This document shows, in pieces, positions 5,368 through 29,234 of a stretch of DNA of 35,733 nt. Source of the DNA: an uncultured Spartobacteria bacterium (GTDB lineage Bacteria; Verrucomicrobiota; Verrucomicrobiia; Chthoniobacterales; UBA6821); the NCBI GenBank assembly GCA_903831635.1, contig CAIKYN010000414.1:1-35733 (forward strand). Reading direction: 5' to 3'. Positions within the stretch are counted from its first letter, which is position 1. Each line of letters starts with the position of its first letter. A program made the translations under genes and the position numbers. Below the pieces are notes generated by a model that ran no database searches, was not told the DNA's origin, and worked only from the letters and a program-made list of their open reading frames with translations.

Positions 5368-5393
5368 ATCCTTTGCCAGTCATGTCAAAGAGC

Positions 5394-7875: not shown

Positions 7876-8577
7876 TTAATTGGCCGAAACTTCCAAAACG
7901 CTCAATGAGTCTTTGGAATAAATAGCCTCCAGCCACCCACCCGTTCCCGAGAGCATCCACTCCTGCACAATCTGAAACGCATTCCCTCTGGTCGAAATCT
8001 TCGGTGCCAAATAAAGCCATGTCCGGTCATCACCCATGGCGGGATCTTCTAGTTTCTTAAACGGAGGATCGCCGATGATCGTGCCGATATTCTCAAAGAG
8101 ATCGGAAGGCAACTCGCTCACGGTCTTGGTCTGGCGATACACACACGTGTAGGAAAGGAAATCGGTCGTCCCATACACCGGGGAGGCCGTGCCATCCGGC
8201 AGGCTTTGCGGAAATGCTTTCTGTGCGGTGTCCCATCCGTAGGCGGTCACCATTTTGGAAAAATTCGGCGAACTCTGCACCGGATTCTGACTCATGGAGA
8301 AATCAAGCTCCTCCACCAATCCAATGTCGTCGGAATCATTGGAATCGCCCGAGACTTTCTCATAATCGAACTGGGCAATCCAGTTCCCAGCCTCATCGCC
8401 CTGGGCTTGAGCACCGACAAACAAGGCGTCGTCGTAGGTCTGATCCACCTCGTTGTAGGCCCCCGTAACCGCTGCCTGATACGAAGAAAAAAAGACACGG
8501 CGGGAAATCTTTTCCAGACCCGTCTTGTCGATCGAACGGCGTTCGCCGATCAGGATATGTCCATCATCCAGACTCAT
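7876..8577 (-). CDS. Tail tip protein, paralogue 1 (distal-tail position directly after the tape measure)
   Basis: ORF track, 233 aa. 5-nt gap after the tape measure gene. Homologous to 7171..7869. Confidence 0.65.
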   Translation of the reverse strand: MSLDDGHILIGERRSIDKTGLEKISRRVFFSSYQAAVTGAYNEVDQTYDDALFVGAQAQGDEAGNWIAQFDYEKVSGDSNDSDDIGLVEELDFSMSQNPVQSSPNFSKMVTAYGWDTAQKAFPQSLPDGTASPVYGTTDFLSYTCVYRQTKTVSELPSDLFENIGTIIGDPPFKKLEDPAMGDDRTWLYLAPKISTRGNAFQIVQEWMLSGTGGWLEAIYSKDSLSVLEVSAN

Positions 8578-8582
8578 CGTTT

Positions 8583-10112
8583 TTAAGGACGGGCAAAGAC
8601 CATTCCCCAGTTATCTCCCGCCATGGAGGGCTGCATGGGGCGCTTCATGCCGTCGGCGATTTTTTGAAGCAACGATGTTTGCCGTTTGTTCTCATCGAGC
8701 AACGGATCGCCCTGACCCCCGGCGAGTCCTCCACCCCCGATCTTGCGGAGCGAATCGGCAAAGGCATTGGATTTCCCAAATCCCTCAGCCTCTTCATCTC
8801 CGCCGAGGTGTTTGAACTTCTTGGAAGATTCTTCCCGTGCTTTGGCAAGCTGTTCCTTGCTGGCGTCCGTGGCCGTGAAGGCCCCTTTCATCGGATCGAT
8901 CAGCGCACTCTTGAGATACTCCCCGACCTGACCGAGTCCCTCGCCGATCAAGGCATTGGCGTCACCCTTGCCCGCCTGGGCAAGCTGTTCGGCCCCGTTT
9001 CCTTCGGCCTGAGTCTGCTTCAGGATGTCATCGAAGCTGCTGGCCTTGTAGCCCTCCGTCCCGGTGAGTTTATTGAGACCCGGGATCTTGCCCATCCCCT
9101 GCATCACCTGCTCAATCGCCGCCTGAAGACCGGCTTGGAAATAATCCAGCGGAGTCTTGAACATGTGGACGAGCAGCACTCCGAGTCGTTCAATGAGCCC
9201 CGCAACCACCCCGACAAGACCGGAGATCAGCATGGGAAGTTCCCCGATCAGATTCATGATCCCCTGGACAAGTCCTTCAAAGATCTGACGCATCTCCTCA
9301 TCAAAATCGGTGGAAAAGTTCTCAAAGAACGATCCGATCGCTTCACCTATCCCCGAAAGGTCGATGGAATTGCCAAGCTCCAGCAATGGCTCAATCGCCG
9401 CCATGATCGGTCCAGCCATGCCGATGAAAAGACCCGAGAGCTTGCCCCCGATATGCTCCAACTGGTCATGAGCTTCCTTGAACAAATAGGCATTCTCTCC
9501 CATGAGCTTGGCCGTATTGGAGAGATCCCCCATGTTCTTGAAATCGGGATTCTGGAAAACTTGTAGTAGTTCCCCGCCCGATTTTCCAAAAATGGCGATG
9601 TCCCCTTTGATTTTATCGCTCTGATTGCCCATACCTGCCAAGGCCGTCCCTATATCCCTAAACGCTTCCGCCGGAGCTTTATTTGCCTCGGCTTTGGGAT
9701 CGAGATTGAGCTGAGTCAGTACGGGGGAACCCCCCTTGGTGCTAGCCGACTCACTCAAATACTTCTGCATTTTGTTCACCGCAGGGCCGATCTTCTCGGC
9801 TTCGACGCCCGAATCCTTGAAGAGACGACGCATCATCATCAAATTCTCCACGGCAATACCCGTCCGGTTCGACAGATTGACCATCCCATCCCCCAGCTCC
9901 ACGGCCCCGTGGATACCGGCCATGATGCCGCCAATCGTCGTAAGCGCTGCGGTCACTTCGGCAATCGGTGCCAGGAGTGCCTTGAAATCGAGATGATCGC
10001 CGATCTTCCCCGCTTGTTCACTGAAAGCCTTGAGCTCGTTCTTGCTATTGCCGAGCTTGGAATCGAACGACCCTGTAATCAGGTCGAGGTAGAATTGGAC
10101 GCCAGAACTCAT
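8583..10112 (-). CDS. Tail tape measure protein
   Basis: ORF track, 509 aa, A/G/L/M-rich helical. Core ...NLSNRTGIAVENLMMMRRLFKDSGVEAEKIGPAVNKMQKYL... is typical of tape-measure proteins. Lies downstream of the chaperone pair. Confidence 0.85.
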   Translation of the reverse strand: MSSGVQFYLDLITGSFDSKLGNSKNELKAFSEQAGKIGDHLDFKALLAPIAEVTAALTTIGGIMAGIHGAVELGDGMVNLSNRTGIAVENLMMMRRLFKDSGVEAEKIGPAVNKMQKYLSESASTKGGSPVLTQLNLDPKAEANKAPAEAFRDIGTALAGMGNQSDKIKGDIAIFGKSGGELLQVFQNPDFKNMGDLSNTAKLMGENAYLFKEAHDQLEHIGGKLSGLFIGMAGPIMAAIEPLLELGNSIDLSGIGEAIGSFFENFSTDFDEEMRQIFEGLVQGIMNLIGELPMLISGLVGVVAGLIERLGVLLVHMFKTPLDYFQAGLQAAIEQVMQGMGKIPGLNKLTGTEGYKASSFDDILKQTQAEGNGAEQLAQAGKGDANALIGEGLGQVGEYLKSALIDPMKGAFTATDASKEQLAKAREESSKKFKHLGGDEEAEGFGKSNAFADSLRKIGGGGLAGGQGDPLLDENKRQTSLLQKIADGMKRPMQPSMAGDNWGMVFARP

Positions 10113-10116
10113 AAAA

Positions 10117-10833
10117 TTATTTCATCGGGAAGCCGGATGAGGCCATTTGCTTCTCTTCCAGATTCTTTAGGATCTTCACCATGTTCTTGATCTGGTTATT
10201 CACCGCGTAATCGACGCGGCGTTGCATGTCCTTCACATGGCCTGCAAAATTGACCTCGTTGCTGGCACGGAAAGCGATCCCCTTGGCCCCCACGCTCAAA
10301 GTCATGGCGCCCGGGGCGGCGTGCCGCGAGATCCAGGTAGGCACACGGATTTTCCCCAGCGCCTTTGCTGCAGGCAGCCACCCACTGGCAAGGAATCCGA
10401 CCATCTTCTTTTTCTGCTGGCGGTAAGCATTCAGAATGGAGGATTCAATCAAGAATCGTTCGTCTTTTGTTCCCTTGTTCAGTCTTCTCTCCACCCGGCC
10501 GGTCGATGCCTGGCGAAAAGAACGATGAACCGATGCAGGAGATCCAGACGTGGGAGTTCTTCTGCCAGCCGAACGCATGATCTTGGCCAGATCGTTCAGA
10601 ACGGCTTGCTCTCCCCGTTTCTTGGAATCGCTTCCCGTGGTCATCTCGCCCTTGCCATCATTGGCTGCAGCATCCCAACCGCTCGGAGGAGTGACGGAGA
10701 TGACCGATCGCAGGATACCGCGTGCTTGAGTCTTCATCGCCTCCGTCCGTGAGCGCTTGGAATCCCGCATGTAGGTCTCAAAAGCCTTCAGGAACTTGTC
10801 CGTGTTGCGGGGTTGGATCGTTACAAAGGCCAT
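10117..10833 (-). CDS. Hypothetical basic protein inserted between the GT chaperone and the tape measure
   Basis: ORF track, 238 aa. Its ATG overlaps the end of the frameshifted T extension (ATGGCCTTTGTAA). No motif I recognise. Confidence 0.55.
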   Translation of the reverse strand: MAFVTIQPRNTDKFLKAFETYMRDSKRSRTEAMKTQARGILRSVISVTPPSGWDAAANDGKGEMTTGSDSKKRGEQAVLNDLAKIMRSAGRRTPTSGSPASVHRSFRQASTGRVERRLNKGTKDERFLIESSILNAYRQQKKKMVGFLASGWLPAAKALGKIRVPTWISRHAAPGAMTLSVGAKGIAFRASNEVNFAGHVKDMQRRVDYAVNNQIKNMVKILKNLEEKQMASSGFPMK

Positions 10834-11488
10834 GAGATTTCCGGGGTGTCTTCTTCCTCTGAGGAAATGTCAAAATAGGAAGAGAGTGCGTCGAGTTCCT
10901 CCAACTGCGCTTCCTTCGAAGGACTCGGGTCCACCGTCCAAACGTCGTGACTCCGCCAGCAAGCATGCAAATACTGCAGCAAGCGTGCCAAAGGCATCCG
11001 CAGGATCTGGCGTTCCGGCCACCCCGTCTCCTTCGCAATGGTGAAGACCAGCGAGGCCGTGCGGGATGGCTCCCTCAGTTTCCCGGGGCCGTCTCCTTAT
11101 TCCCCGACCCAGGCTTCTCTTGGACATCAACCGTGGCCTCCGTAATGCCTGCCACGATACGTTCTACCACCGAACGAAGGCCCACCAAACCTGTCATGGG
11201 GATCTTGCGGGCAAAGTGACGCACGGCAGTCTGATAGGCCGTAGGATCGTCGCTCTTAAACGGTACAAGATCAGGATCCGTCCCATGGATATACAGGAAC
11301 TCAGTCATCTGCTGGAGTTGCTCCGCCGTCGTGAGCTTGGCCGAGGGGTCGTACAGGAACGTGAGCCCCGCATCGATCACGATCAACTGGGTCTCCAAGG
11401 AGAAAGGGCTGAAAGTGATGCCATTCCAAACAATCGGCGTGTCACGGAATGCCTTGTTCAGCACGGAGGGAGATGATTTTTTGGACAT
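10821..11488 (-). CDS. Tail assembly chaperone -1 frameshift fusion (gpGT-like)
   Basis: After a -1 slip at 11084-11078 the frame stays open for 86 codons (GKLREPSRTASLVFTIAKETGWPERQILRMPLARLLQYLHACWRSHDVWTV...TPEISWPL) to TAA at 10823-10821. This frame has no Met start, so it is not in the ORF track. Confidence 0.7.
11075..11488 (-). CDS. Tail assembly chaperone (gpG-like)
   Basis: ORF track, 137 aa. Lies between the tube-like genes and the tape measure. Ends ...CCG GGA AAC TGA, i.e. slippery G GGA AAC immediately before the stop. Confidence 0.75.
   Translation of the reverse strand: MSKKSSPSVLNKAFRDTPIVWNGITFSPFSLETQLIVIDAGLTFLYDPSAKLTTAEQLQQMTEFLYIHGTDPDLVPFKSDDPTAYQTAVRHFARKIPMTGLVGLRSVVERIVAGITEATVDVQEKPGSGNKETAPGN
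11078..11084 (-). other. Programmed -1 ribosomal frameshift slippery heptamer GGGAAAC
   Basis: X XXY YYZ pattern in the zero frame (G GGA AAC) directly before the G stop codon. The -1 frame is open downstream. Confidence 0.7.
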
Positions 11489-11524
11489 AAAAAAAAGGTT
11501 ATTAGGCTGAAGGCTGTTAGGCTG

Positions 11525-11686
11525 TTAGGTCAGAGGATGCTTTGGAGGTTTGGCATTAGGAGACACAAACTGCCTCTTGTAACCGATGGCATGGACTTCC
11601 CTGAAAGATGCCAACAATTTCTCAGCCGGTGTAAATTGCTTGAAAACAAGTTTCTTCTGCTTTTTTCCTGAGTTCCTGAGTTCCAT
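11525..11686 (-). CDS. Possible small basic protein (53 aa) starting MELRNSGKK
   Basis: Below the ORF-track cutoff. ATG 11686-11684, TAA 11527-11525. Its first 8 codons coincide with the repeated ATATGGAACTCAGGAACTCAGGAA box, so this may be a DNA motif rather than a gene. Confidence 0.25.
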   Translation of the reverse strand: MELRNSGKKQKKLVFKQFTPAEKLLASFREVHAIGYKRQFVSPNAKPPKHPLT

Positions 11687-11695
11687 ATTAATTTC

Positions 11696-12166
11696 TCAAA
11701 AGATCTCCAGCATCTTTTTCCCTTTGTCAGTCGGGACGAGCTTGCCGTCAGGCCCTCGCGTCGTCGCAATGTAGGCGCTGCGACCGCTCTTCTGAATGTG
11801 GAGCTGCGGGGGATTCTCCCTAATGGCGTCACGCAGCTTGCCAATCTTCTCCATGAACGTGCGGAGGTAGGTGATCGGGTGATCGAGGTTCTCGGAAAGC
11901 CACTTACGGTCATTCCACCGGCGAAGCAATTCATTGGTGGAAATCGTTTCCCCCTTGAAATCGGAAAAAATGATTTCCCGATCTTCGGCGACCCAGACAA
12001 CTGTCCTGGTCGGTTTCCCATCGTCGGTACCGATGGCATTCATGTAGCCCCCTTCCTTGACCAGTTCCCCACCACAGGTGAGGAGGGCTGCGATGGCTTG
12101 GGTGTTCGGACTCTTCAAGGGATCCAGATCGTCCTTGAGATAATGGTAAGTACTTCCTGTTTTCAT
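11696..12166 (-). CDS. Hypothetical protein (moron-like position between tube genes and chaperone)
   Basis: ORF track, 156 aa. No recognised motif. The overlapping 169-aa ORF in another frame looks spurious. Confidence 0.55.
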   Translation of the reverse strand: MKTGSTYHYLKDDLDPLKSPNTQAIAALLTCGGELVKEGGYMNAIGTDDGKPTRTVVWVAEDREIIFSDFKGETISTNELLRRWNDRKWLSENLDHPITYLRTFMEKIGKLRDAIRENPPQLHIQKSGRSAYIATTRGPDGKLVPTDKGKKMLEIF

Positions 12167-12201
12167 AAATTCATTCTCAATTGTTACCGATTAGGTCGTG
12201 G

Positions 12202-12531
12202 CTAGGTCGTGGCGTTCGGGAAAATCTTGGCCGTGTATTTGAACGATGAGAAATCGTCGTTTTTGTAAGATTGCTCGACCGAATCCACGATGATCTTCCC
12301 ACTGGTCAAACCCGTGGGGCCGGTGGTCGTGCTGGCAATGGTGACGGGATTGGAATCGCCGTATCCTTCGACACTCAGCTCCCCCGTGGGATCGTAGGTC
12401 GCCATACCACCAAACCCTCCGGTGGAGTTCATGTAGGTCTTGACCTCGAGCTTCTCACTGGCCGTGACCTTGGTCAGGGTCGTGGTCGAAAGAAGATGGA
12501 TACCGATTCCGCCTGTGTAAGTTGCAGCCAT
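12202..12531 (-). CDS. Small tail tube-like protein, paralogue 2
   Basis: ORF track, 109 aa. Shares ...KTY...G...S.E..G......V.SV.Q...NDDF...K...A... with 12568..12882. Occupies the major-tail position upstream of the chaperones. Confidence 0.6.
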   Translation of the reverse strand: MAATYTGGIGIHLLSTTTLTKVTASEKLEVKTYMNSTGGFGGMATYDPTGELSVEGYGDSNPVTIASTTTGPTGLTSGKIIVDSVEQSYKNDDFSSFKYTAKIFPNATT

Positions 12532-12567
12532 GTGAGTAAAAAGTATGGGGATGAAAAAGCCGGGCGA

Positions 12568-12882
12568 TTAGGAGGCGGTGTAAGCGACGGCCTCCACCTT
12601 GGTCTTGGGGAAATCGTCATTGGTCTCGTCCTGACTGACCGAAGTCACCGTCAAGGTTCCAGCCGAGATCGTGGTAGCTCCGGCAAGTCCGAAAGTGGCC
12701 GATCCGACGATCTCCAAAGAGACTTTGCGTTCTTTCATTGGAACCGCATCGGCTGCCACGGTATTGCCCGATTCGTCTCGGTAGGTCTTGATGGTGGCCG
12801 TGGTCGTGTCCGTGTAGCTCTGGACATTGCCCGTGTAATTGGTGGAGATCGGTGGGGTTCCGACGCCGAAAGTTGCGCTCAT
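12568..12882 (-). CDS. Small tail tube-like protein, paralogue 1
   Basis: ORF track, 104 aa, beta-rich. Preceded by structured element A and a CTTTTGACAC-CCCTAGGG motif 14 nt upstream of the ATG. Confidence 0.6.
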   Translation of the reverse strand: MSATFGVGTPPISTNYTGNVQSYTDTTTATIKTYRDESGNTVAADAVPMKERKVSLEIVGSATFGLAGATTISAGTLTVTSVSQDETNDDFPKTKVEAVAYTAS

Positions 12883-13020
12883 ATCCCTAGGGGCCGTGTC
12901 AAAAGATGCCGACGGTGGTCGGCAGCTTAGTCATGCGAGGCAAAAGCCGAGCAGTCCCGAGATCACCAGATCGAGGGATGCCTGATTGGGGACAATCGGC
13001 AGACAAACTTATAATAGCCA
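12883..13020 (-). repeat. Structured intergenic element, copy A (possible cis-regulatory RNA)
   Basis: Homologous to 18961..19100 in the same orientation. Consecutive hairpins on the transcribed strand, with substitutions confined to loops and one stem fully compensated (see findings). Confidence 0.7.
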
Positions 13021-13449
13021 TTACGCCACCACTGGGGTCACTCCGATCTCGATCTCGATGTCGATCACATGACGTTCGTGATCGATCTGCTCCCGGACGG
13101 TCATGCCTGCAAGGCCCGCATAGCTCCAAGAGCTCTGGGATGTGTTAAACGCTTCGGCCAACGGGGAAGATGGCCCCTGACCATACTGGTCGAACAAGAC
13201 GGCAATCTGGGTCGCCCGGGTGCGGTGCAGTGCCAGATTGGCACCGGCTGCAGGGGTCGTGAGGCGAAGCGGGCAGGTGGATTTCCAAAGGCCAAGAGCC
13301 GAGCGCTGGGCACTGGTCGCCTCCACGATCAACAGGGGCTGGCTGTTGGGAATCTGTTCGGAACTTGTCCCTGGATGAATTGCCAGTCCCGAAAGGAAGC
13401 TCTGGGAAGAGAGGATCCCGATCAAGCCGAGTTCGATATCTGCGGTCAT
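13021..13449 (-). CDS. Head-tail connector / tail completion protein (by position)
   Basis: ORF track, 142 aa. Last gene of the connector block before the tube-like genes. Confidence 0.5.
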   Translation of the reverse strand: MTADIELGLIGILSSQSFLSGLAIHPGTSSEQIPNSQPLLIVEATSAQRSALGLWKSTCPLRLTTPAAGANLALHRTRATQIAVLFDQYGQGPSSPLAEAFNTSQSSWSYAGLAGMTVREQIDHERHVIDIEIEIGVTPVVA

Positions 13450-13459
13450 GGTGTCTTTA

Positions 13460-13786
13460 TCATGGAGTTTTCAGGGTGACGCGGGTTTCCGTTGCGCGTG
13501 CCGGATCACCACTCGGAGGGATGATGTCGAGGATCTGGTAAGTCTCGCCCGTCGATTGCAGTGTCACGGACTCCCCAAGCGTGGGGGCCGGGGTGATCAC
13601 CCGAAGGAAACGGCACTCAAAGCTGGCATCGCTCCGGTAGCCTCCGAGCTGCAGGTCGAGCTTCGGATCGGGAGTCGAGAGCACTGCTCGCTCGGTCATG
13701 CCACGGTACGTGACAGAACTCGCCAAAGCATCACGGCTGCGGGTGGCACGCGACGCCATGCGGGCGATGCTGTCGGAAAGCGCCAT
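13460..13786 (-). CDS. Head-tail joining protein (by position)
   Basis: ORF track, 108 aa. Size and position are typical of head closure/adaptor proteins. Confidence 0.5.
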   Translation of the reverse strand: MALSDSIARMASRATRSRDALASSVTYRGMTERAVLSTPDPKLDLQLGGYRSDASFECRFLRVITPAPTLGESVTLQSTGETYQILDIIPPSGDPARATETRVTLKTP

Positions 13787-13791
13787 TTTCC

Positions 13792-13974
13792 CTAGCCTCC
13801 CTTGACCTTGGAAATAACCTTTTCCACTTTCTCCACAAAACTCTCCACGGCGCTCTCCACTTTGTGCTCCGTGGTTTTCAGATGGTCGTCGAGGATGGCG
13901 ATTTCGGCGCGCAAATTGGCAGGAATCGTCGAAAGGAGGGGGCGGATCTTTGCCCAGGCGTCGGTAGCATTCAT
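13792..13974 (-). CDS. Small helical hypothetical protein (60 aa)
   Basis: ORF-track frame 13792..14166, with the start moved to ATG 13974 (MNATDAWAKIRPLL...) to avoid overlapping 13982..14230. Confidence 0.4.
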   Translation of the reverse strand: MNATDAWAKIRPLLSTIPANLRAEIAILDDHLKTTEHKVESAVESFVEKVEKVISKVKGG

Positions 13975-13981
13975 AAAATAA

Positions 13982-14230
13982 TCAGGCAGAAACGGGTTCG
14001 GATTTGGGTTTTTTGGCGGCTGGCTTGGGAGCTTCTGGAATAAGTCTCTTGCGGCGGATGACTCCCCCGGAGGAATCCCACAGGGAAATGATTCCGAACT
14101 CGGCGTCTGAGTTCTTGGCATGAAAAGTCTCGCGCAGCGCGGCGTAGTCACTGGTAGGCCCGGCAAGAATGCTGTGCCGTGGTTTGCGGGGGTCGCTTTC
14201 TTCGGAAAGCGTGAGGATGAAGGTTCTCAT
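13982..14230 (-). CDS. Hypothetical protein with a Lys/Pro-rich tail
   Basis: ORF track, 82 aa. First gene after the post-capsid terminator. Confidence 0.45.
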   Translation of the reverse strand: MRTFILTLSEESDPRKPRHSILAGPTSDYAALRETFHAKNSDAEFGIISLWDSSGGVIRRKRLIPEAPKPAAKKPKSEPVSA

Positions 14231-14302
14231 CGGTGATGTCGTTGGGTGGGGATCGTTTGCGGATCTTTGGGGATCGTTGGTTTTTTGGTTGGATCTCTTC
14301 AG

Positions 14303-14339
14303 CCCAAAACCCCTCCCCCGGAAATTTCCAGAGGAGGGG
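14303..14339 (-). terminator. Rho-independent terminator/attenuator downstream of the major capsid gene
   Basis: Minus-strand RNA CCCCUCCUCUGGAAAUUUCCGGGGGAGGGG (14339-14310) forms a ~13-bp GC-rich stem using two G-U wobbles, followed by UUUU (14309-14306). On the plus strand the wobbles become C-A mismatches, so the signal is strand specific. Confidence 0.8.
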
Positions 14340-14361
14340 CGGAGCAGGAGAGGTAAATCTC

Positions 14362-15258
14362 TTAGGCGGAGACGATGCGCTTGAGAGCGGCACCCTCGCC
14401 CTTGCCGTAGCCGTAGTTGGCCTCGATCACCATCTGGACGGTGTCCGAGCCGGGGATCGGGTACTCGCGGTACTCGAGGGTGAGTCCGTTGTCATCCGTT
14501 GCGGTGACGTAACGGGTGATGCGGTCGTCCGCAGGAGCGATCGGGGCGAAGGCCACAAGCGCGGCGTCGGGCAACGTGGCGAAACCGACAAGGTTCTCGC
14601 TGTTGGCAGGGATGTTCGGGGTGACGAACACGTCCAGACCGGCGATGTGGGTAAGAGCACCCTTGAGCTTGACGTCCGCACCGGCCTGACCCATGGCGTT
14701 CCAGTTCGCAATGGAACTGTCCTTGAGAAGAGCACCATGGTAGGTGCTGGAAAGCACGAGAGAACGGTTGGCGACGGGCCAGTAGCTCTGGTTGATGGAG
14801 GTGACGATGTCCGCGATGTCCGTGAAATCGAAAGCGGTCGGAGCTCCGGTGGAAACGGCGCTGCCATAGTTGGCGGCGGTCACGACACTCAGGATGTCGA
14901 TCACGACGTCATGGGCGAGAGCTTCGGCCTGACGATCCATGAGCTTCTCCACCGAGAGGTGGGGCTGGCGGGCAAGCTCGTAGCCGGTGATATTGAGCGC
15001 CTGATATTTGCGCTTGTTGATGACGACCGGACGGCTCTGGACAGTACCGGCATCGGCGCTGTATGAACCATTGAAGTCGCTGGAAGCGGTACCCTGAAGG
15101 GGATAGTAGGGAACGGTGATCGTGTCATTACCCTGGAGAGGGATGCCACGGTAAACTGTCGAGAAAGCGTTAATCGGGGCCAGAGTACGCTTGAACGCCA
15201 GAAGGGCGTTTTCAAGGATAGCCTGTACCTGAAGATCGCTGGCGATGGAGTTGGCCAT
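14362..15258 (-). CDS. Major capsid protein
   Basis: ORF track, 298 aa. Follows the portal-protease-scaffold order and is followed by a strong terminator. No exact family assigned by eye. Confidence 0.75.
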   Translation of the reverse strand: MANSIASDLQVQAILENALLAFKRTLAPINAFSTVYRGIPLQGNDTITVPYYPLQGTASSDFNGSYSADAGTVQSRPVVINKRKYQALNITGYELARQPHLSVEKLMDRQAEALAHDVVIDILSVVTAANYGSAVSTGAPTAFDFTDIADIVTSINQSYWPVANRSLVLSSTYHGALLKDSSIANWNAMGQAGADVKLKGALTHIAGLDVFVTPNIPANSENLVGFATLPDAALVAFAPIAPADDRITRYVTATDDNGLTLEYREYPIPGSDTVQMVIEANYGYGKGEGAALKRIVSA

Positions 15259-15309
15259 GATAGTGAGGAATTATGGGTTAGGTTGGGGTTGGTGGGATTG
15301 CTCCCGGGG

Positions 15310-15813
15310 TTATTTCTTGGAACGCTCGGCGTCGTACTTCTGGAGCACGGCCTTGTGTTCGCGGAAAAAGTTGGTCTTGGCGGAACCCTTCAAGGAGTTC
15401 CACTGGTCGTAGATGGAGGCGGGGTCGTTCGTGGCGGCATCGGCTTCGATCGGAAGAGCACTGGCCTCGAACCCAAGGGCCGCGACCTGATCCACGGTGG
15501 CCGCTGCGACCTCCTCATCGATCTGGCGCTCAGCTTGCTCAAGGGTCTCCTTGACCTCGGTGAGCTTGGCGATCTCCTCGGCATGAAGAACTTTGGCGCT
15601 CTCCAGGGCGGAGGCGTGATCGGCGGCAAGCTGCTCGAGCTCACTCACCCTCAGGGCGTGGCCTTCGGCGGCAAGCTCGAACTCGGCGATCACGGCGTTC
15701 TTGGCCTCAAGGAGTGCGATGGACTCGGAGAGGGAATTCTGAGCGGCGGCCAGATTGCCCAAGAGGGTCTCCTTTTCGGCAAGGGCGGCTTTGAGTTGAG
15801 AAAAGATATTCAT
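15310..15813 (-). CDS. Scaffolding protein
   Basis: ORF track, 167 aa. A/E/L-rich coiled-coil composition. Lies between the protease and the capsid gene. Confidence 0.65.
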   Translation of the reverse strand: MNIFSQLKAALAEKETLLGNLAAAQNSLSESIALLEAKNAVIAEFELAAEGHALRVSELEQLAADHASALESAKVLHAEEIAKLTEVKETLEQAERQIDEEVAAATVDQVAALGFEASALPIEADAATNDPASIYDQWNSLKGSAKTNFFREHKAVLQKYDAERSKK

Positions 15814-15858
15814 GTGGTTTCCACTAGGTGCGGTGTCAAAGTTCGGTGAATCGACGGC

Positions 15859-16749
15859 TCACATGCCGTCGTTGTCGTCATCTCCCTCTCCGTCACCATC
15901 CTCGTCCAGATCCTCGGCAATCAGGGAAATCGCCTCGGCAATGCCTGAGACAACGCGGTCGGCAAGGCCATTCTCCACGGCCTGCTCCCCGTCGAACCAT
16001 TGCCCCTGCATGGTGGCGTCACTGATCGTGCGACCCGTGGCTTCCAAACGATTTGCCAGGACTGCGGAAGTGAATCGGCTGTTTGCCCGGTTCACTCCAT
16101 CCTGCAAGAAAGCACGCTCGGCGTCGGTAAAGGATTTCCCTTCCAGCCCGATGGCTTTCAGAGATCCGGCTTTGAAAAGTTCGAGCTTGAGCCCCTCCAT
16201 CTCGTAGGCACGCGAGCTGTCGATCATGGCCAGATAGGTGCCGATCGATCCGACATCACTCGATCCGGTCACAAAAATCCCGGCGGTCGCAGCACTAGCA
16301 AGCCAGTAGGCAGCCGAGCACATCTGTGAATCCGTGAAGGCGTAGAGTGGCTTGGTGGTCTGGCCAAGCGCGGCTGCCGCCTCGGGGGTGCCGGTCACCA
16401 TGCCGCCGGGGGAGTTCACATCGAGCAAGATGCTGGTCACCGAAGGATCCATGTCAGCTTTCATGACGGAATTCACCAAGACATCGACATCCGCCCCACC
16501 GCACATCATCTCAAGCATGTTAAGACGCTTCCCGATGACGCCATTCACCGGGACGATGGCGACGCCATCCTGCACGTCGTATCCTTTCTGCTCCATGTCA
16601 TCCTGGTCGCCGTCGTTTTCGACCGTCAGGAAAGAACTGATCGGCTGGGTCTGATGCGCCTCAAAGAGCGACTGGAGTCGGCGGTGAGACTCGGGAAGGA
16701 TGTGCCACGGCGTGGCGTAGAGACGGGTGGCGATGCGTGCAAGCTTCAT
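15859..16749 (-). CDS. Head maturation protease, S49 (SppA/ClpP-fold) family, lambda gpC-like
   Basis: ORF track, 296 aa. Motifs ...LLDVNSPGG..., ...DSQMCSAAYWLASA..., ...GSIG... are typical of S49 peptidases. Acidic C-terminal tail. Lies immediately downstream of the portal block. Confidence 0.85.
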   Translation of the reverse strand: MKLARIATRLYATPWHILPESHRRLQSLFEAHQTQPISSFLTVENDGDQDDMEQKGYDVQDGVAIVPVNGVIGKRLNMLEMMCGGADVDVLVNSVMKADMDPSVTSILLDVNSPGGMVTGTPEAAAALGQTTKPLYAFTDSQMCSAAYWLASAATAGIFVTGSSDVGSIGTYLAMIDSSRAYEMEGLKLELFKAGSLKAIGLEGKSFTDAERAFLQDGVNRANSRFTSAVLANRLEATGRTISDATMQGQWFDGEQAVENGLADRVVSGIAEAISLIAEDLDEDGDGEGDDDNDGM

Positions 16750-16780
16750 CCCCTCGGCGGGATGTCAAAGCGTGAAGGCA

Positions 16781-17044
16781 TTAGCCTTTTTTCAATTCTT
16801 TCTGACGGGCACGATATTCGACGACATTCTGACGGATTCGCATTTGCATGGAGTCGCGCCAGCTTCGGCGGGTTCCTTTTTTCCGCTCGTATGCACGAAG
16901 GTGCTCCAAGACGCTGCCACACCCTGAGACCTGCTTGTGACCTCCATCATGACAACTGGCCACCGTGATCGGGCTGCCATTCATGGTGCCGCGACTCAGT
17001 CCCACGTCCTCGAAGGCCCCGATCAGTGCGTTCAGATCTTCCAT
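16781..17044 (-). CDS. Small Cys/His-containing hypothetical protein
   Basis: ORF track, 87 aa (..SCHDGGHKQVSGCGS..). Lies between portal and protease. Function unknown. Confidence 0.45.
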   Translation of the reverse strand: MEDLNALIGAFEDVGLSRGTMNGSPITVASCHDGGHKQVSGCGSVLEHLRAYERKKGTRRSWRDSMQMRIRQNVVEYRARQKELKKG

Positions 17045-17049
17045 ACAAA

Positions 17050-18627
17050 TTAGGCTGCGGATGTTTGGTCGTCGGAGGTTTCAATCACCTCGGGGGGTTG
17101 CTGAACTTTCAACTCGGGGTAGAGGTCACTCATGGACAAGCCGCGACTCTCCATCTCCTTTTTCCTCCAAAGGGCAAAATCCATTTCGCGGGAAACCTCT
17201 TCCTTAGCGTCCTGACCTTTGAGATTGTAAAGACGCTCGGTCGAGATCAGACCGGTGCGGTGTTGCTCCAGATAGATGCGACCATCACGACCGAAGTCGC
17301 AGGTGATCTGCTCGGGAGGAACCCATGAGTGCGACCAGAATGCGGGATCCTGACACTTGCGGAGGCGTCCTGCCTTGATCTCCTTGGCAATGGTGTAGAC
17401 CCAATCCCGCGAGAGCCAGGTATCGACAAAGTTGGCCTGTTCACTGGCAATCCATGCCTGGGCATCGGCCAGCACATACCTGACCCCTGCTCCGCCAAAT
17501 TTGGCAATCGACCAACCGAGGGCGTCCGAAATTCCGAGGCCCCAGCAGCAATCGCGAATCAAGGAATTCTCAACGAACTCGACGCTGTTCGGGTGGGGCC
17601 GCTGATCGAGTAATGTCCTGATGTCGTAGCCAGGGGGAACCTCTTTGATCTCGCCACCCATGCCGAAGACTTCGCTCGTGCGAATGCTTTGCAGGTTGCC
17701 GTTGGTATCCGAGCCGACGACCTGATCGGTCTGATACTTGCCAGCCAAGGCGTCCATGATGCCGGGGGTCGCTTCCTTATCCGAGGAAGCAAGGTAATAG
17801 CCGATCTGGTTACTGAGCTTGATGCCCTGCATGACCGAGGCATTCAGCTCGGTGATGTCGATCAATTTATTAACTGCATGGGCAAGAGCCGAAACGCCAC
17901 GGAACTGGCCGGGGCTTTCCTGATTGCACAACCAGACGACATTCTCAGCACCGACCCGGGTGGTCTTGGAGAAATCGTCATCGAGGAAATAGAATGCCTG
18001 GGCGCGACCGAGGCGATCCACGGCGATGCCGTCGTTCATTTTCTTGTCGAGGGTTCCGATCGGTTCCCCCACCTGAGTGCCGGAATAGAGACGGCGAAGT
18101 GCTCCACCGCTCTGGCTCTCGCTAAAAACGATGGCGGCATCGCCGTCTTTCTTCTGAGTCAAATAAGCGAGACGCTGCATCTGGACTCCAGTGAGCCGAG
18201 CAGAAACGTCATAGGTGGAAGCGCTGCGGGCGCGGCGGTTGTACGCGGCGTCGGCCAGGGCATTCCATTCGCTGTCGCGGGTCGTGGCCTGCGGGGTAAA
18301 TCCGTTGCCCACGACCATGTTCGTAATCGAGGTGAGCAGGCGGCGGGCCAGACCCATGTTGGCCATGAGATAATGCACCTTGCGGGCGATCTCGCGGCGG
18401 GTCCAGACGTTGATCTCATCCCGTGGGGAAAGTGTGGGCCAGTAGATGTACCCCCTCTGCATGGAAGGGACGGCGGCGTCGTAACCATACGCGGCCTTGA
18501 TCCGGGCGGGGCCGGTGCCTCCGGTCGTCCCGTTCGGAACTGCAGGCATGCCGGTGGGGGTGGAGGGGATCTTCGGGAGACCGCGACGGGTCGTTTGCCG
18601 TGTCGGGCGGGATGTCTTCTTGGCCAT
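17050..18627 (-). CDS. Portal protein, lambda (gpB) family
   Basis: ORF track, 525 aa. N-terminal basic tail, then ...YDAAVPSMQRGYIYWPTLSPRDEINVWTRREIARKVHYLMANMGLARRLLTSITNMVVGNGFTPQ... resembles the lambda-type portal signature. Lies downstream of a GpA-type terminase. Confidence 0.85.
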   Translation of the reverse strand: MAKKTSRPTRQTTRRGLPKIPSTPTGMPAVPNGTTGGTGPARIKAAYGYDAAVPSMQRGYIYWPTLSPRDEINVWTRREIARKVHYLMANMGLARRLLTSITNMVVGNGFTPQATTRDSEWNALADAAYNRRARSASTYDVSARLTGVQMQRLAYLTQKKDGDAAIVFSESQSGGALRRLYSGTQVGEPIGTLDKKMNDGIAVDRLGRAQAFYFLDDDFSKTTRVGAENVVWLCNQESPGQFRGVSALAHAVNKLIDITELNASVMQGIKLSNQIGYYLASSDKEATPGIMDALAGKYQTDQVVGSDTNGNLQSIRTSEVFGMGGEIKEVPPGYDIRTLLDQRPHPNSVEFVENSLIRDCCWGLGISDALGWSIAKFGGAGVRYVLADAQAWIASEQANFVDTWLSRDWVYTIAKEIKAGRLRKCQDPAFWSHSWVPPEQITCDFGRDGRIYLEQHRTGLISTERLYNLKGQDAKEEVSREMDFALWRKKEMESRGLSMSDLYPELKVQQPPEVIETSDDQTSAA

Positions 18628-18960: not shown

Positions 18961-19100
18961 CGCTCCCCTAGGGGGATGTCAAAAGGCCGCTGGGAAGCGG
19001 GCTTAGTCATTCGAGGCATAGGCCGAGAAGTCCCGAGATCAGCAGATCGAGGGATGCCTGATCCGGGAGGATCGGCAGACAAAACCTTGGCACATGCCAA
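18961..19100 (-). repeat. Structured intergenic element, copy B
   Basis: An 82-nt block is ~89% identical to copy A by hand alignment. Same hairpin series, with the terminator-like hairpin built from a different stem sequence. Confidence 0.7.
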
Positions 19101-21529: not shown

Positions 21530-21536
21530 TCATCGT

Positions 21537-21594
21537 TTGCGTCATGTCAAAGAAAACGCAAGGGCATGGCACATGACGCAATGAGTGCGTCATG
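21537..21594 (-). promoter_or_regulatory. Alternative-hairpin leader upstream of terS (three copies of CATGACGCA/TGCGTCATG)
   Basis: Plus strand: TTGCGTCATG 21537-21546, CATGACGCAA 21572-21581, TGCGTCATG 21586-21594. The middle arm can pair with either neighbour (10 bp or 9 bp). Confidence 0.55.
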
Positions 21595-21833
21595 GCGGTG
21601 CGTCGGGAAAAATGCGTCTTTGCTCCGTTTTACAGTGGGAGACCCAATCAAGGCGACAATCCAAAGCAAAAAATAGATTCCCTTGCAACAAATTTTCCGC
21701 ATGACGCCTAATGTTTGAAGCGTTTGCCAATCACCCCAGATGCTGGTGGTGCAGGTCATCTGCGCTTTCACCCGCCCTCCATACCATATTAATTTTTCAG
21801 CGTTTCAAAAAATCACCATTGTTTCCCACCTTT

Positions 21834-22026
21834 ACCTGCATTACCTGCACTTCTTCTCTCTTAAAGAATTGTAGATAAGAGAAATAAACCCAGTGCCGGT
21901 GACGCCAAAGATTGCCACCATAGGTGCAGGTGACCTGCACTTCGGCGCGCCCATACCCATTTCATCCTGCAAACCCCGCCCCTTTATTTTCAATTCTCAC
22001 CAACATAGTGCCGGTGACCTGCACTT
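21834..22026. repeat. Iteron / palindrome cluster (candidate cos/terminase recognition region or replication origin)
   Basis: GTGCAGGTGACCTGCACTT at 21924-21942 and GTGCCGGTGACCTGCACTT at 22008-22026 (18 of 19 nt identical, 84 bp apart). ACCTGCACTT also at 21843-21852, ACCTGCA at 21834-21840, GTGCCGGTGAC at 21893-21903. 21924-21940 is a perfect palindrome GTGCAGGT-G-ACCTGCAC. AT-rich tracts lie between the repeats. Confidence 0.8.
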
Positions 22027-22081
22027 GTGATCGACCAAAAAGGGCGCGGGAACGCAGAGCATGACGCCGAACTCAGGACAC

Positions 22082-22117
22082 AAAAAAGCCCGATGTCAGC
22101 ACATGCCGAAATCGGGC
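22082..22117 (-). terminator. Rho-independent terminator at the end of the early/replication operon
   Basis: Minus strand: GCCCGAU-[16 nt]-AUCGGGC followed by UUUUUU (22087-22082), 34 nt after the stop of the SF3 ATPase gene. Confidence 0.65.
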
Positions 22118-22150: not shown

Positions 22151-23254
22151 TCACGCCACCCTGTAGAGTCGAGCATTTCGGTTTCCCACCCGCTCGAACT
22201 TCACCGATGCCCGAGGCGATTCAAAGCGAAAGACGCGCCCATTGTACCCTGCAAAGAGCTTCCCCATGCGGCTGCGGGACTTGGGATAAATCTCAAACTC
22301 CCTGGACTCCTTATCGATCTTCCCGGCGATACCATCCTCGAACAGATTCTCATTCCTACAGATCCAGATCAGATCATCGAAAGAAATCCCCTCCCGCACT
22401 GGGAACTCAATCGCATCGCGGAAATACCCCGCTGCGAGCTTCTCCACCAGCGTCTTCATGTCAATACCGTCAGGATCACCGAAATCATCGGCATCCGGGC
22501 GGCGAAGCGGCGATCCGAATCCCGCATGTTCCACGATCCCACCGATCACCCGACTCCAGTCCTCGAACCCCACCAACCTACCCGACCCCACCGGACGGCC
22601 TGCCGCATCCCAGGCATGAATGAGCGACCAGAGCGCCGACAAGATCGACTGCCTCACCTCCGGGCGTTCCAGATACTCATCACCGATCGGGTTCTTAATC
22701 TCACGGGCCTGCGGATCCGCCTCAAGGTTGAAGAGATCCACGAAGAGCATACGCCCAGCCACGTCAGGAGAGACCTCGCATTGATTCGACGTGAACATCA
22801 CCATGATCTGCTTCCGAATCTCGAATGTCTTGTTTCCACCCATCCGACGACCGGCATGAACGGATGATGTCGCAAACTGCTCAATGGCAGCCCCCTCCAG
22901 CTTCGTCTTCGCATTGTCGAAGATCAGACTCGGATATCCCGACAGCACCGCCGAATCGAGCACCTTGGACACCTCCTCCTTCTCTTCTGGGAATGTCTGC
23001 ATCTTTGCGTACCCAGCCACGGGAATCTCCACGATCTTGGCAAGAAGCGACTTTCCAGACCGGCTGGAGTTTGCATTCCAGCAGAAATACGGGATCTGAG
23101 CCGACTTCGGCAGCAACGTGAATCCAAACCTACTCACCATCGCCGCAATCTGGACGGAGAGCGACCGACCCCCATCATCGGCAAATGGAAACTCCGATAG
23201 CAGATCCCGAAGGAATTTCGTCGCCAAAGGCAACGGAACAAGATCGTAAATCAT
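22151..23254 (-). CDS. SF3 (D5/P4-type) helicase ATPase domain protein
   Basis: ORF-track frame 22151..23302. Start moved to ATG 23254 (ATGA overlap with the upstream stop). ...LRDLLSEFPFADDGGRSL... then Walker A NSSRSGKS and Walker B SLIFDNA. This is the layout of D5_N + SF3 helicase proteins of phages and plasmids. Confidence 0.75.
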   Translation of the reverse strand: MIYDLVPLPLATKFLRDLLSEFPFADDGGRSLSVQIAAMVSRFGFTLLPKSAQIPYFCWNANSSRSGKSLLAKIVEIPVAGYAKMQTFPEEKEEVSKVLDSAVLSGYPSLIFDNAKTKLEGAAIEQFATSSVHAGRRMGGNKTFEIRKQIMVMFTSNQCEVSPDVAGRMLFVDLFNLEADPQAREIKNPIGDEYLERPEVRQSILSALWSLIHAWDAAGRPVGSGRLVGFEDWSRVIGGIVEHAGFGSPLRRPDADDFGDPDGIDMKTLVEKLAAGYFRDAIEFPVREGISFDDLIWICRNENLFEDGIAGKIDKESREFEIYPKSRSRMGKLFAGYNGRVFRFESPRASVKFERVGNRNARLYRVA

Positions 23255-23850
23255 TTGCCCTCCTTGAGCTTTTGGATCTCGTCGCGGAGATAGCGGAGGC
23301 AATGCAATAGATCGTCATTTTCACCAGCGTTTTCACATAGAACGAGGTGATATTCGAAAATATCCAGCGGCATCTCCTGCTTTGGCTCAACTACTAATTT
23401 ACTACTATTTTTTTTACGATTAGTAGTTGGCAACGGGCGGCGGGTGCGGATTCTTCCTGAAGTTTGAATTTTTTCGCCAACCCAAAGACTAAGAGCAGGA
23501 ACCCACCCTGCCATTGGTGAATTATACTGGTCGTCAGCTTCTATGATTTCCCCTTTTTCTTTTATGCGCCATTCTAGTTTAGGGCATATAGTTTCGTAGG
23601 GATGAAGCGTGTGCTTAGAATGAGGTTGACCGCAATCCTTGCATACCCTCTTGGTGACAGGTTTCTCTGGCGCGGTGCCTAGCGCGGCTATAATTCTGTT
23701 CCGCATCTCGCTTGCTGTGGATCTTGCCGCCCCTACCCTTGAATGCAGGGCCATAAATGACGCGCATTCGTCGAGAAGCTCCCTGAGCCTTGCGACCTCG
23801 TTGTCTGGACTTTTAGGTTCCTTGGGGAACTGGCTATATATATTACTCAT
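23251..23850 (-). CDS. Hypothetical protein (shares the NEVARLRELL motif with the upstream gene)
   Basis: ORF track, 199 aa. AT-rich relative to its neighbours. CKDCG...H..H Cys/His cluster. Confidence 0.5.
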   Translation of the reverse strand: MSNIYSQFPKEPKSPDNEVARLRELLDECASFMALHSRVGAARSTASEMRNRIIAALGTAPEKPVTKRVCKDCGQPHSKHTLHPYETICPKLEWRIKEKGEIIEADDQYNSPMAGWVPALSLWVGEKIQTSGRIRTRRPLPTTNRKKNSSKLVVEPKQEMPLDIFEYHLVLCENAGENDDLLHCLRYLRDEIQKLKEGK

Positions 23851-25087: not shown

Positions 25088-25933
25088 TTACTCCTTAACG
25101 AGGATCTGACTCTCCGGGTCATAGCCGGGTCCCTGCAGGACCAGCTTCCCGTCCTTGAAGATCGGAAGAGGAATCCGACTGATCATCCGCAGGGGCCTCT
25201 GCTGCCTACGGAACTCATGCGACTGCAACACCGCTGCCGAGGCCATCTTACCCATCGACTCGTAGCCCCGCTCATAAGTCACCTTCCCATCCTCCCCCTT
25301 CGACTTGATCGTCCTCCAGAAAAGCACATCCTTCTCCACATAGGTACGGAAGGAATCAGGCGAGAGATCCTCCATCCGGTCACTGTGCGGCTGAAGCACC
25401 ACCGGCACCCCATCGAGGAGGAAAACCCCATTCCTAGAGCAGACAGCTCCCACCTCACGGGAAAAATCCGAGAGCAGCCGATTCACACGAGGCAGCTCGA
25501 TCTCCTCACGGAGCATCTTTTTCTCACCCGAGAGCGCCTCCAGCGCATCCTTGGCCGCATCGGCTGAGAGATGACCATCTCCCAAGGACTTGGCGATTGC
25601 CACTTTCTCGCGTTCCAGATGGCACGACCGCAGCGCCTCCAGAGAGCTTGCCACAACCGGCCAGACCTCATGGCCGGGAACGACCGTGGCCGGCCCCCCG
25701 ACGAAGTCCAGCTTGCCAGACTCCATGAGTGCCTGGGTGATCGTGATCAGATTGGCCGGACGCCCCTTCAGCTCCACCTCACGGGCATGGAGGAAAATCT
25801 CCGCCGTGATATCGAGGAGCCAGGACGGGGAGAAGTCCTTGACCTCATCCACGATCCTCTGAGTCCCTTCGCCCACGATCCACCCCCGGACGATCGTGTC
25901 CGCCTGGGCATTATGAAAAATTCCTCCTGACAT
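25088..25933 (-). CDS. DnaB-N-terminal-domain protein; probable N-terminal half of the replicative helicase
   Basis: ORF track, 281 aa. ...HNAQADTIVRGWIVGEG...FLHAREVELKGRPANLITITQALMESGKLDFVGGPATV... follows the DnaB N-terminal domain pattern. The C-terminus ends ...PIFKDGKLVLQGPGYDPESQILVKE. Confidence 0.55.
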   Translation of the reverse strand: MSGGIFHNAQADTIVRGWIVGEGTQRIVDEVKDFSPSWLLDITAEIFLHAREVELKGRPANLITITQALMESGKLDFVGGPATVVPGHEVWPVVASSLEALRSCHLEREKVAIAKSLGDGHLSADAAKDALEALSGEKKMLREEIELPRVNRLLSDFSREVGAVCSRNGVFLLDGVPVVLQPHSDRMEDLSPDSFRTYVEKDVLFWRTIKSKGEDGKVTYERGYESMGKMASAAVLQSHEFRRQQRPLRMISRIPLPIFKDGKLVLQGPGYDPESQILVKE

Positions 25934-29228: not shown

Positions 29229-29234
29229 ACCGCC

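Follow-up and report, generated by a model that had tools for sequence, protein, structure and literature searches.

What does a short sequence do that stands, always in the same orientation, a short distance ahead of many start codons in one genome? The question is raised by contig CAIKYN010000414.1, whose whole analyzed stretch of 35,733 nt (here the window; 35.7 kb, 54.6% GC) is the genome of a lambda-like siphovirus, with nearly all transcription from the minus strand. The sequence is the hexamer TTGACA, hereafter the box. A first-pass annotation had noticed it and offered three candidate explanations, namely dispersed repressor sites like the stoperators of mycobacteriophages, promoters giving very short leaders, or an RNA-level translation or processing signal. 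We favor, with a probability of about 0.45, the reading that the box is a non-canonical, DNA-level promoter element for the late genes and a few others, which would fix a predicted transcript 5′ end 14 nt downstream.

An oriented hexamer linked to start codons

TTGACA occurs 13 times on the minus (coding) strand of the window and 0 times on the plus strand (two-sided binomial P = 2.4e-4), so the single orientation noted at first holds at 13:0. The total of 13 is not above chance (17.6 expected on both strands), and the signal therefore resides in placement and orientation and not in number. Nine of the approximately 45 minus-strand starts have a box 11–20 nt upstream, with observed gaps of 13–20 nt, where 0.09 are expected (Poisson P ~9e-16), and two more copies, lying between genes, are 34 and 36 nt away from a start. 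Codon-preserving shuffles place the sense copies within genes at expectation (4 observed, 3.5 expected) and reveal the reverse orientation to be depleted (0 observed, 5.0 expected, P = 0.007). Placement and orientation thus bear out the box as a real, oriented, start-linked element.

The nine start-linked copies tabulated in the first-pass annotation all have correct coordinates and gaps, and its tenth copy, at 33298–33303, does lie 36 nt ahead of a 28-codon open reading frame (ORF); three copies had been missed (10868–10873, 22459–22464 and 1503–1508). The longer form (C/T)TTTGACA(C/T) is true for 8 window copies. Two further features had been ascribed to the box and hold in part. The G-rich run resembling a Shine-Dalgarno (SD) sequence within a mini-palindrome is real in the window but not conserved by relatives, since this run and the CCTAGG-type mini-palindromes are confined to the window’s close relatives and several other relatives have spacers with no purine run. 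The small hairpin said to precede the box is stable and significant at only 3–4 of the 11 window sites. The box is, as had been stated, not an ordinary −35 element: no TAnnnT follows 16–18 bp downstream, the start codon occupies the place of the −10 element, and a promoter scan found no promoter at the boxes in the window. No box lies in the early/replication operon of the window (28301–22151).

Conservation among related phages and elements

Whether related phages conserve the box was answered in its favor. Of 34 distinct upstream regions of orthologous genes, 32 retain the hexamer while both flanks diverge. The regions come from relatives with 58–98% identity across the first 40 residues of every gene linked to a box; the sequence further upstream is often unrelated and the spacer is rewritten. 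Among 80 related viral contigs retrieved with an S49 protease profile, 33 have at least two boxes linked to starts, and the density reaches nine per 20 kb. Prophages with the box are found in a Verrucomicrobia metagenome-assembled genome, in Coraliomargarita, Lacunisphaera and Ruficoccus, and in an 8.9-Mb genome, where the genes that bear it are the small-terminase candidate, the small gene before the portal, the portal, the protease and the gene in scaffold position. The core is identical in phages with ~40% protease identity whose hosts belong to at least two orders (Puniceicoccales, Opitutales), and in prophages of Opitutia the box persists even within the protease gene, where it is read as the rare codons TTG-ACA. 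Selection acts on the DNA sequence itself, as is observed in the orthologous retention, in the TTG-ACA codons of the protease genes and in the depletion of the reverse orientation.

The host genes that flank such elements do not share the layout: 0 of 21 have it in loci L047, L130 and L131, whereas many genes of the prophages or integrative elements next to them do. One host gene beside a prophage has an ordinary TTGACA-N17-TAATTT promoter. In L131 the flanked element (8450–17834) is a small integrative element next to gyrB/gyrA, with an integrase, a DUF927 protein and no virion genes, and it carries TTGACA-N13/16 before its genes, so that the box occurs outside phages as well.

Anatomy of the box

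The family set comprises 299 non-redundant TTGACA copies, 228 sense and 71 antisense, and the gap of each is its distance to the next long-ORF start. Near starts there are 103 sense copies and 1 antisense copy (1 of 71). The gaps of the sense copies fall at 13 nt in 40 cases, 14 nt in 24, 15 nt in 8, 16 nt in 13 and 17 nt in 8, with 3 at 12 nt, so that the distribution has a hard lower edge. An unbiased count of all hexamers 13–14 nt upstream of starts puts TTGACA far first, with 74 of 219 copies (34%) against 2.4% in the background. Variation is tolerated at position 6 only, where TTGACT reaches 18%, TTGACG 9% and TTGACC 1% (A > T > G >> C), and in sigma-70 −35 elements, too, this is the position that is conserved least. 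Beyond the hexamer only one base on either side is informative, T or G at −1 and a pyrimidine at +1, and nothing is conserved upstream.

The spacer between box and start is 68% GC and 14% A. At the columns expected for TAnnnT, 16–18 bp downstream, the 40 gap-13 sites show no T/A signal, and the A equivalent to −11 is present in 2 of 40. The leaders of the other, box-free late genes of the window are AT-rich and G-poor (12% G), and the early genes have GGAGG. These box-free late genes (starts 15258, 11488, 18627, 12531, 10112 and others) have long C/A/T-rich leaders with no SD sequence, for example ...ccaaccccaacctaacccataattcctcactatcATG before the capsid gene, and host genes beside related prophages are also without SD sequences.

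Two features tie a fixed point to the box. The first is a purine at nt 14 after the box, found in 25 of 31 copies with gaps of 15–18 nt against 48% in the background (P = 0.001); a pyrimidine is favored at nt 13, its combination with the purine at nt 14 giving P = 0.008, and the purine signal moves with the box and not with the ATG. The second concerns the start codons, which are GTG in 16 of 40 genes at gap 13, in 1 of 24 at gap 14 and in 0 of 31 at gaps 15–18, a pattern that holds within the same genomes. These start codons are genuine, in that codon-level conservation begins there and the NCBI protein of one protease gene (L068) has the GTG start predicted from the box.

A candidate late promoter of unusual geometry

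How could a −35-type hexamer act so near a start codon? In the favored reading, TTGAC(A/T) would be read by region 4 of sigma-A or by a protein of the same specificity, from outside the ordinary −35 position, at about −19 to −14, and the transcript 5′ end would lie 14 nt (sometimes 15) downstream. That end would mostly coincide with the first base of the start codon (ATG or GTG), so that the mRNA would have no leader, and otherwise would leave a leader of 1–5 nt. With no −10 element and with 13 bp of GC-rich spacer, the DNA should open only with the help of an extra phage- or element-encoded factor, and the involvement of such a factor would explain why the layout is missing from host genes and why it marks late genes. 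We infer the start at nt 14, the reading by sigma region 4 and the need for a phage factor from the pattern of bases and distances.

Several observations converge on this promoter reading. The core equals the host −35 hexamer, has the same tolerance and is identical across diverged phages, and this speaks for a reader that is itself conserved, such as region 4 of sigma-A, and not for a fast-evolving repressor or an RNA partner. A mode at the hard lower edge of the gap distribution is expected because a start codon cannot precede a fixed 5′ end. The GC-rich spacer, set against the G-poor leaders of other late genes, is unlike a translated leader, and the one-sided spacing, the pyrimidine-purine step at nt 13/14, the GTG starts at the shortest gaps and the unleader-like spacer are together what a fixed 5′ end at nt 14 would give. 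Internal late promoters, as in Verrucomicrobia phage P8625, fit the hairpins that abut some boxes, the depletion of the reverse orientation and the context of the first late gene, which a strong conserved terminator precedes and where nothing else resembles a promoter. Of the three explanations first offered, promoters with very short leaders accordingly fit best, since they agree with the 13/14-nt gap and its hard edge, the purine at nt 14, the GTG starts at gaps of ≤13, the GC-rich spacer and the terminator-like hairpins that enter the box.

Several points weigh against such a promoter. No RNA polymerase holoenzyme is known to us to recognize an element at −19 to −14; when sigma region 4 is bound to the beta flap, the active site comes to lie ~30–35 bp downstream of the −35 element, not 14. 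A GC-rich segment from −13 to −1 without a −10 element is hard to melt. A pyrimidine occupies nt 14 in 19 of 24 copies of the gap-14 class, so that the start would have to shift by one base there, and the model does not explain the scarcity of GTG in that same class. Upstream hairpins stand at a minority of sites only. Finally, a co-occurring factor was looked for and none was found, the 205-aa helix-turn-helix (HTH) protein and the DUF927 primase-helicase of the window being absent from many box phages.

The 205-aa HTH protein (27684–28301) had been suggested as a phage-encoded, sigma-like reader, a role it does not sustain. It belongs to no Pfam or PHROG family, is absent from most box-carrying phages and has only 11 close homologues; its best sequence match to a solved structure is weak (a KorA HTH, E = 0.4), and its own structure model is poor (pLDDT 52). 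The DUF927 primase-helicase was rejected likewise, being absent from many box-rich loci. Proteins with a ParB_N domain recur in box phages and none was found in the window, which also has no polymerase-sized uncharacterized gene; a search of the window for a phage-encoded sigma factor or polymerase as reader found none.

Two of the nearest systems for comparison are kinds of promoter. Like sigma-70 promoters, the box has the exact TTGACA, the same tolerance at position 6 and the same orientation relative to the gene; unlike them, it lies 13–16 nt and not ~30 nt from the start codon, lacks a −10 element at 16–18 bp and is followed by a GC-rich spacer. The P8625 genome carries leaderless TTGACA-N17-TATTGG/TATCTG-N7-ATG promoters at comparable late genes, that is, at the small gene before the portal, a tail gene and the tail fiber. 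The same genome (L046) also has, at 5412, 10736, 15558 and 22406, a cassette TTGACA-N9-GTATCC-N7-GGATAC-N4-ATG, in which the start gap is exactly 30 nt, the canonical leaderless geometry, and an operator-like palindrome overlaps the −10 element; the P8625 genome paper does not discuss promoters or this cassette. Single-element phage promoters include the T4 late TATAAATA read by gp55, the phiEco32 gp36 promoters and the T7-type promoters. Like the box, they are short conserved elements present in many copies before late genes; they lie at a fixed distance from the transcript start and give short leaders, as the box would if its predicted 5′ end is real. They sit, however, at about −10 or from −17 to +6, include an AT-rich melting site and are read by a phage sigma factor or polymerase, whereas the box is identical to the −35 hexamer of the host, has a GC-rich melting region and would be placed at −19 to −14.

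It is doubtful, though conceivable, that we are dealing with a new promoter class, one of a large family of Verrucomicrobia phages and integrative elements with a −35-type hexamer at −19 to −14, no −10 element, a GC-rich melting region and leaderless late transcripts. If the box does fix a transcript start 14 nt downstream, then a −35-type contact works where current structural models of initiation disallow it, which would point to a phage factor that moves sigma region 4 to a new position or takes the place of −10 recognition, and hence to a new mode of promoter opening. Whatever its mechanism, TTGAC[AT]-N13/14-RTG on one strand is a simple signature for finding prophages and integrative elements in Verrucomicrobia, an abundant and little-studied phylum whose gene expression is poorly known, and it also fixes start codons in these genomes, including many GTG starts.

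Alternative explanations

An alternative hypothesis is that the box acts in RNA: UUGACA, in the 5′ untranslated region and 13–16 nt before the start codon, would lie just outside the mRNA channel of the ribosome, where a phage- or element-encoded protein or RNA would bind it and activate or repress translation of late genes that have no SD sequence. We regard this as unlikely, yet it is a serious rival and the strongest one. The tight coupling to start codons, with spacing kept within orthologous groups while the spacer sequence changes, speaks for it; another initiation aid is plausible, since the host and the late genes of the phage largely lack SD sequences; GTG at the commonest spacing only could reflect weak starts tolerated at the optimal geometry; and at some sites the CAU of the box, or the spacer, can pair with the start region. 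The identity with the host −35 consensus and the sigma-70-like A > T > G >> C tolerance, which is unlike base pairing, would however be coincidence. The gap distribution is one-sided with a hard edge and not symmetric about an optimum, the purine at nt 14 follows the box and not the ATG, and depletion of the reverse complement is not predicted. No Rfam match was obtained (Rfam families and tRNAs were sought and none found), RNA structure scores are only weakly below those of shuffles (mean z ~−0.3), and the absence of the element from all 21 flanking host genes argues against a general ribosome signal.

A precedent for an RNA-level role is the start-associated sequence (SAS) of cluster K mycobacteriophages (PMC3203893). 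The SAS is a 13-bp GGGATAGGAGCCC that contains the SD core, lies 3–7 bp from the start and precedes non-structural genes only; its many copies share one orientation, are conserved across subclusters before different gene families and are absent from the host (PMC3203893). The box is likewise a short, asymmetric, start-linked motif with many copies in one orientation, conserved in related phages and absent from the 21 host genes examined, but it is a −35-like hexamer of 6–7 bp, 13–16 nt from the start, without an SD core and mostly before structural and lysis genes. It would be a second start-associated motif beside the SAS, whose function has been open since 2011, and one for which cultured lysogens exist, among them Ruficoccus amylovorans (L068) and Coraliomargarita sp. 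SDUM461003 (L048), both with box-rich prophages. The box thus belongs with the dispersed, oriented, start-linked expression motifs of phages, with a real chance of being a new promoter class.

Clearly less probable is that the box binds a protein on DNA without initiating transcription, either a prophage repressor that blocks elongation in the manner of stoperators or an RNA polymerase that is held or paused through its sigma factor. The phage is temperate, its sites are asymmetric, intergenic and of one orientation relative to transcription, and the copy at 33298 is the −35 element of a near-canonical promoter, an arrangement like operator O1 of phage L5. In L5, O1 reportedly overlaps a promoter −35 element and the stoperators read CTTGACA... 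in the direction of transcription. The stoperators of cluster A (the sites of L5 gp71) include a half that resembles the TTGACA of a −35 element, and one of them overlaps a genuine promoter.

The resemblance ends at specificity and location. Stoperators and boxes are both dispersed, asymmetric, intergenic and singly oriented relative to transcription, but the former are 13 bp long with a repressor-specific half, differ between immunity groups, occur also in early lytic genes and keep no fixed distance to starts. In the box only the hexamer and one base on either side are conserved, with no half-site for specificity, and a repressor reading the hexamer alone would bind every consensus host promoter. 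Its core is the same in phages of ~40% protease identity from at least two host orders, unlike fast-evolving immunity specificities, and copies are missing from the 28301–22151 operon, the early lytic operon that a repressor most needs to silence. Neither the fixed 13–14 nt distance nor the purine at nt 14 is predicted, and sigma-dependent pausing lacks a −10-like element. On these grounds the proposed analogy with stoperators, which act in the regulation of transcription (cited in PMC3203893), finds no support.

It is very improbable that hairpin and box form a nut-like module of antitermination or termination, in which an upstream hairpin (BoxB-like or a terminator) and CUUUGACA as a BoxA-like element would act through Nus factors. 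The window copies read (G)CTCTTTGACAT or CATCTTTTGACA, near the generally known rrn BoxA TGCTCTTTAACAA, which may not be that of the host; relatives have a hairpin with covarying stem and TTCCCA loop 4 nt upstream of the box, and terminator-like hairpins are dispersed in the late operon. The CUCUUU core, however, is not conserved: G or T stands at −1, Opitutia prophages have cgTTGACA (G or CG ahead), and it is TTGACA that does not vary. One nut site per operon would do and its distance to a start would be irrelevant, whereas here there are 8–10 copies per late region at a fixed distance, and most sites have no hairpin.

We would be just as surprised to find that the box is a processing signal, bound as UUGACA by an endoribonuclease that cuts a fixed 13 nt downstream and releases leaderless cistrons from a long late transcript. 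Cleavage would cover the same evidence of spacing, nt 14 and GTG as a transcription start and requires no unusual promoter geometry; only the chemistry of the 5′ end would distinguish the two. It would, however, make the identity with the −35 hexamer a coincidence and leave the depletion of the reverse orientation unexplained, and we know of no bacterial or phage nuclease that measures distance in this way.

Other candidates were tried and rejected. A Bacteroidetes-type promoter (TAnnTTTG) has 6 matches against 8 expected and the boxes lack the TA; a sigma-54 promoter would have a TTGCA-like −12 element but no GG element 10 nt upstream, and its distance to the start is wrong; the ATG as the TG of an extended −10 element fits in register at gap 13, but the hexamer that follows has no A at −11. 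If the box’s TTG is taken for a start codon, or its TGA for the upstream stop, the reading frames are inconsistent, and hairpins that sequester the start codon are not a general feature (mean z of −0.3 only). An SD-type signal fails in that 0 of 21 host genes carry the box, the pattern of variants is unlike pairing and UUGACA is not complementary to a 16S tail of ...CACCUCCUUUCU-3′, a textbook sequence that may not be the host’s.

The box is therefore not a member of the sigma-70 promoters, the SAS, the stoperators or the single-element promoters. The searchable literature yielded no description of its layout and nothing relevant on Verrucomicrobia promoters.

Individual sites and adjacent hairpins

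All sites in this section are on the minus strand unless stated otherwise. The first late box, 21545–21550, lies 15 nt before the ATG at 21529 of the first late gene, a 216-aa small-terminase candidate by position, and is kept in 5 of 5 relatives; it stands between inverted-repeat arms TTGCGT and ACGCAA and forms an invariant block in the alignment of relatives. A strong intrinsic-terminator-like hairpin at 22082–22117 (GCCCGAT...ATCGGGC followed by TTTTTT) ends the early/replication operon ~530 nt before this box, and it is conserved, with a different stem in L039. The region between that terminator and the first late gene (21530–22080) is conserved in relatives as well. It contains 4–5 copies of AAGTGCAGGT(N)ACCTGCAC half-sites or palindromes, with GACGCA/TGCGTC repeats around the first box, and is likely a cos or terminase-binding region or a binding region for a late regulator.

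Next in the head genes, the box at 18977–18982 precedes by 16 nt the ATG at 18960 of a 108-aa gene between the large terminase and the portal. It is kept in 5 of 5 relatives despite unrelated upstream sequence, and the same gene position is boxed in prophages L047, L048, L049 and L130. A GC hairpin at 18983–19004 (CCGCT-TCCC-AGCGG; −8.2 kcal/mol, z −1.0) has a T-rich 3′ side that enters this box, and relatives have a related cassette with covarying stems and a TTCCCA loop. The S49 protease gene has its box at 16763–16768, 13 nt before the ATG at 16749, kept in 6 of 6 relatives at a gap of 13–14 nt with changed spacer sequence. At 15834–15839 a box kept in 6 of 6 relatives lies 20 nt before the ATG at 15813 of a 167-aa gene in scaffold position, and a hairpin is found upstream of it at 15852–15871 (GACGGC-ATGTGA-GCCGTC; −13.3 kcal/mol, z −2.4).

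Further along the late operon, the box at 12897–12902 is 14 nt before the ATG at 12882 of a 104-aa gene and is kept in 4 of 4 relatives. A terminator scan identified a terminator-like hairpin at 12907–12924 (TGCCGAC-CAC-CGTCGGCA and then TCTTTTGACA; −13.1 kcal/mol, z −3.4), the U-tract of which overlaps the box. The copy at 10868–10873, also kept in 4 of 4 relatives, lies 34 nt before the ATG at 10833 of a 238-aa gene. A box at 5383–5388 is 15 nt before the ATG at 5367 of a 716-aa tail protein, with a 14-nt gap in L034 and a position 45 nt upstream in L035, and the box at 1332–1337, inside the 3′ end of the upstream gene, is 13 nt before the GTG at 1318 of a 118-aa LtfC-like gene.

At the right end of the window, the box at 35143–35148 is read within the upstream gene as Leu-Thr codons and lies 14 nt before the ATG at 35128 of a 73-aa membrane protein of the lysis cassette. 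The deoxynucleoside monophosphate kinase gene (ATG at 33048) has its box at 33063–33068, likewise with a 14-nt gap; this box is kept in L035, where the lysin stop codon is directly ahead. The remaining intergenic copy is the sole one in the window with near-canonical promoter geometry, as read directly from the sequence of 33276–33303: TTGACA at 33298–33303, a 16-bp spacer and TATCTA at 33276–33281, 36 nt before the 28-codon ORF that starts at 33261. It failed the strict −10 rule of the promoter scan because its last base is A. The sense copies at 22459–22464, with no start codon at the usual distance, and at 1503–1508 are intragenic and probably chance copies.

Terminator-like hairpins are scattered through the late operon. 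Relatives carry a cassette of TCTTACGC, a 5-bp GC stem with TTCCCA loop, TTGT and TTGACA, such that the U-rich tail enters the box; it is found at L002 8898, L004 8842, L055 7518, L058 1491 and 4463, and L059 8267, and its stems covary (GCCGG, GGGCA, GCCGC, GCGCG). Perfect hairpins with an NTCCCA loop, counted in all loci, precede a box in 6 of 7 cases. An 83-nt segment is duplicated at 12925–13007 and 19001–19083 (89% identity, extending to ~100 nt when aligned), and a hairpin and box follow immediately after each copy (sites 12897 and 18977). The duplicates have one reading frame with conservative changes that ends at ATGACTAAG, which may encode a small hydrophobic peptide, or the segment may be a small mobile cassette. 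In L067, an AT-rich 308-aa gene (17372–18298, minus strand) is inserted on the opposite strand between tail genes, directly upstream of a box-linked tape-measure-like gene, and is likely a moron or defense gene.

Genome context

The head genes of the window are a GpA-type large terminase (19101–20882/21191), a lambda-type portal (17050–18627), the S49 head-maturation protease (15859–16749) and the major capsid protein (14362–15258), and the tail genes include the tape measure (8583–10112). The lysis cassette lies at the right end and the replication block includes a beta-clamp. Phages of this group are present in humic-lake and other freshwater samples. No DNA-level similarity of the window to deposited phages was found. 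The host phylum is Verrucomicrobiota, with named protease homologues from a Verrucomicrobia metagenome-assembled genome and Akkermansiaceae; the best cultured-phage matches of the portal are Akkermansia phage Moulinsart and Verrucomicrobia phage P8625, and related prophages occur in Ruficoccus amylovorans, Coraliomargarita and Lacunisphaera, all of class Opitutia.

The phage is judged temperate because it encodes a tyrosine integrase (29139–30269, plus strand; Phage_int_SAM_5 and Phage_integrase domains). A minus-strand ORF of equal length (29025–30158) overlaps it and looks non-coding, the integrase being the real gene. The lysogeny module further comprises ribbon-helix-helix genes at 30680–30898 (plus) and 30426–30584 (minus) and a GYF/zinc-ribbon gene at 30945–31340 (plus), and no gene of this module has a box. 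The minus-strand genes 25088–25933 and 22151–23302 jointly match the single DUF927 primase-helicase gene of related prophages L047–L049, and the gene is therefore split or rearranged in the window phage, with three small genes between its parts.

Two sets of repeats complete the description. Positions 1–441 hold three tandem copies of a 147-nt unit (the others 89% and 68% identical to the first), downstream of the last tail gene. A ~20-nt motif, TTCCTGAGTTCCATAT(T/A)A, occurs on both strands, at 11661–11691 and 33544–33574 (plus) and at ~33375–33400 and ~33095–33113 (minus), with 3 of the 4 copies in a 530-nt non-coding region (33050–33580). Relative L035 is without this region, and its lysin stop codon abuts the box directly; the repeats may serve as operator or arm-type sites, or may represent a small inserted element.

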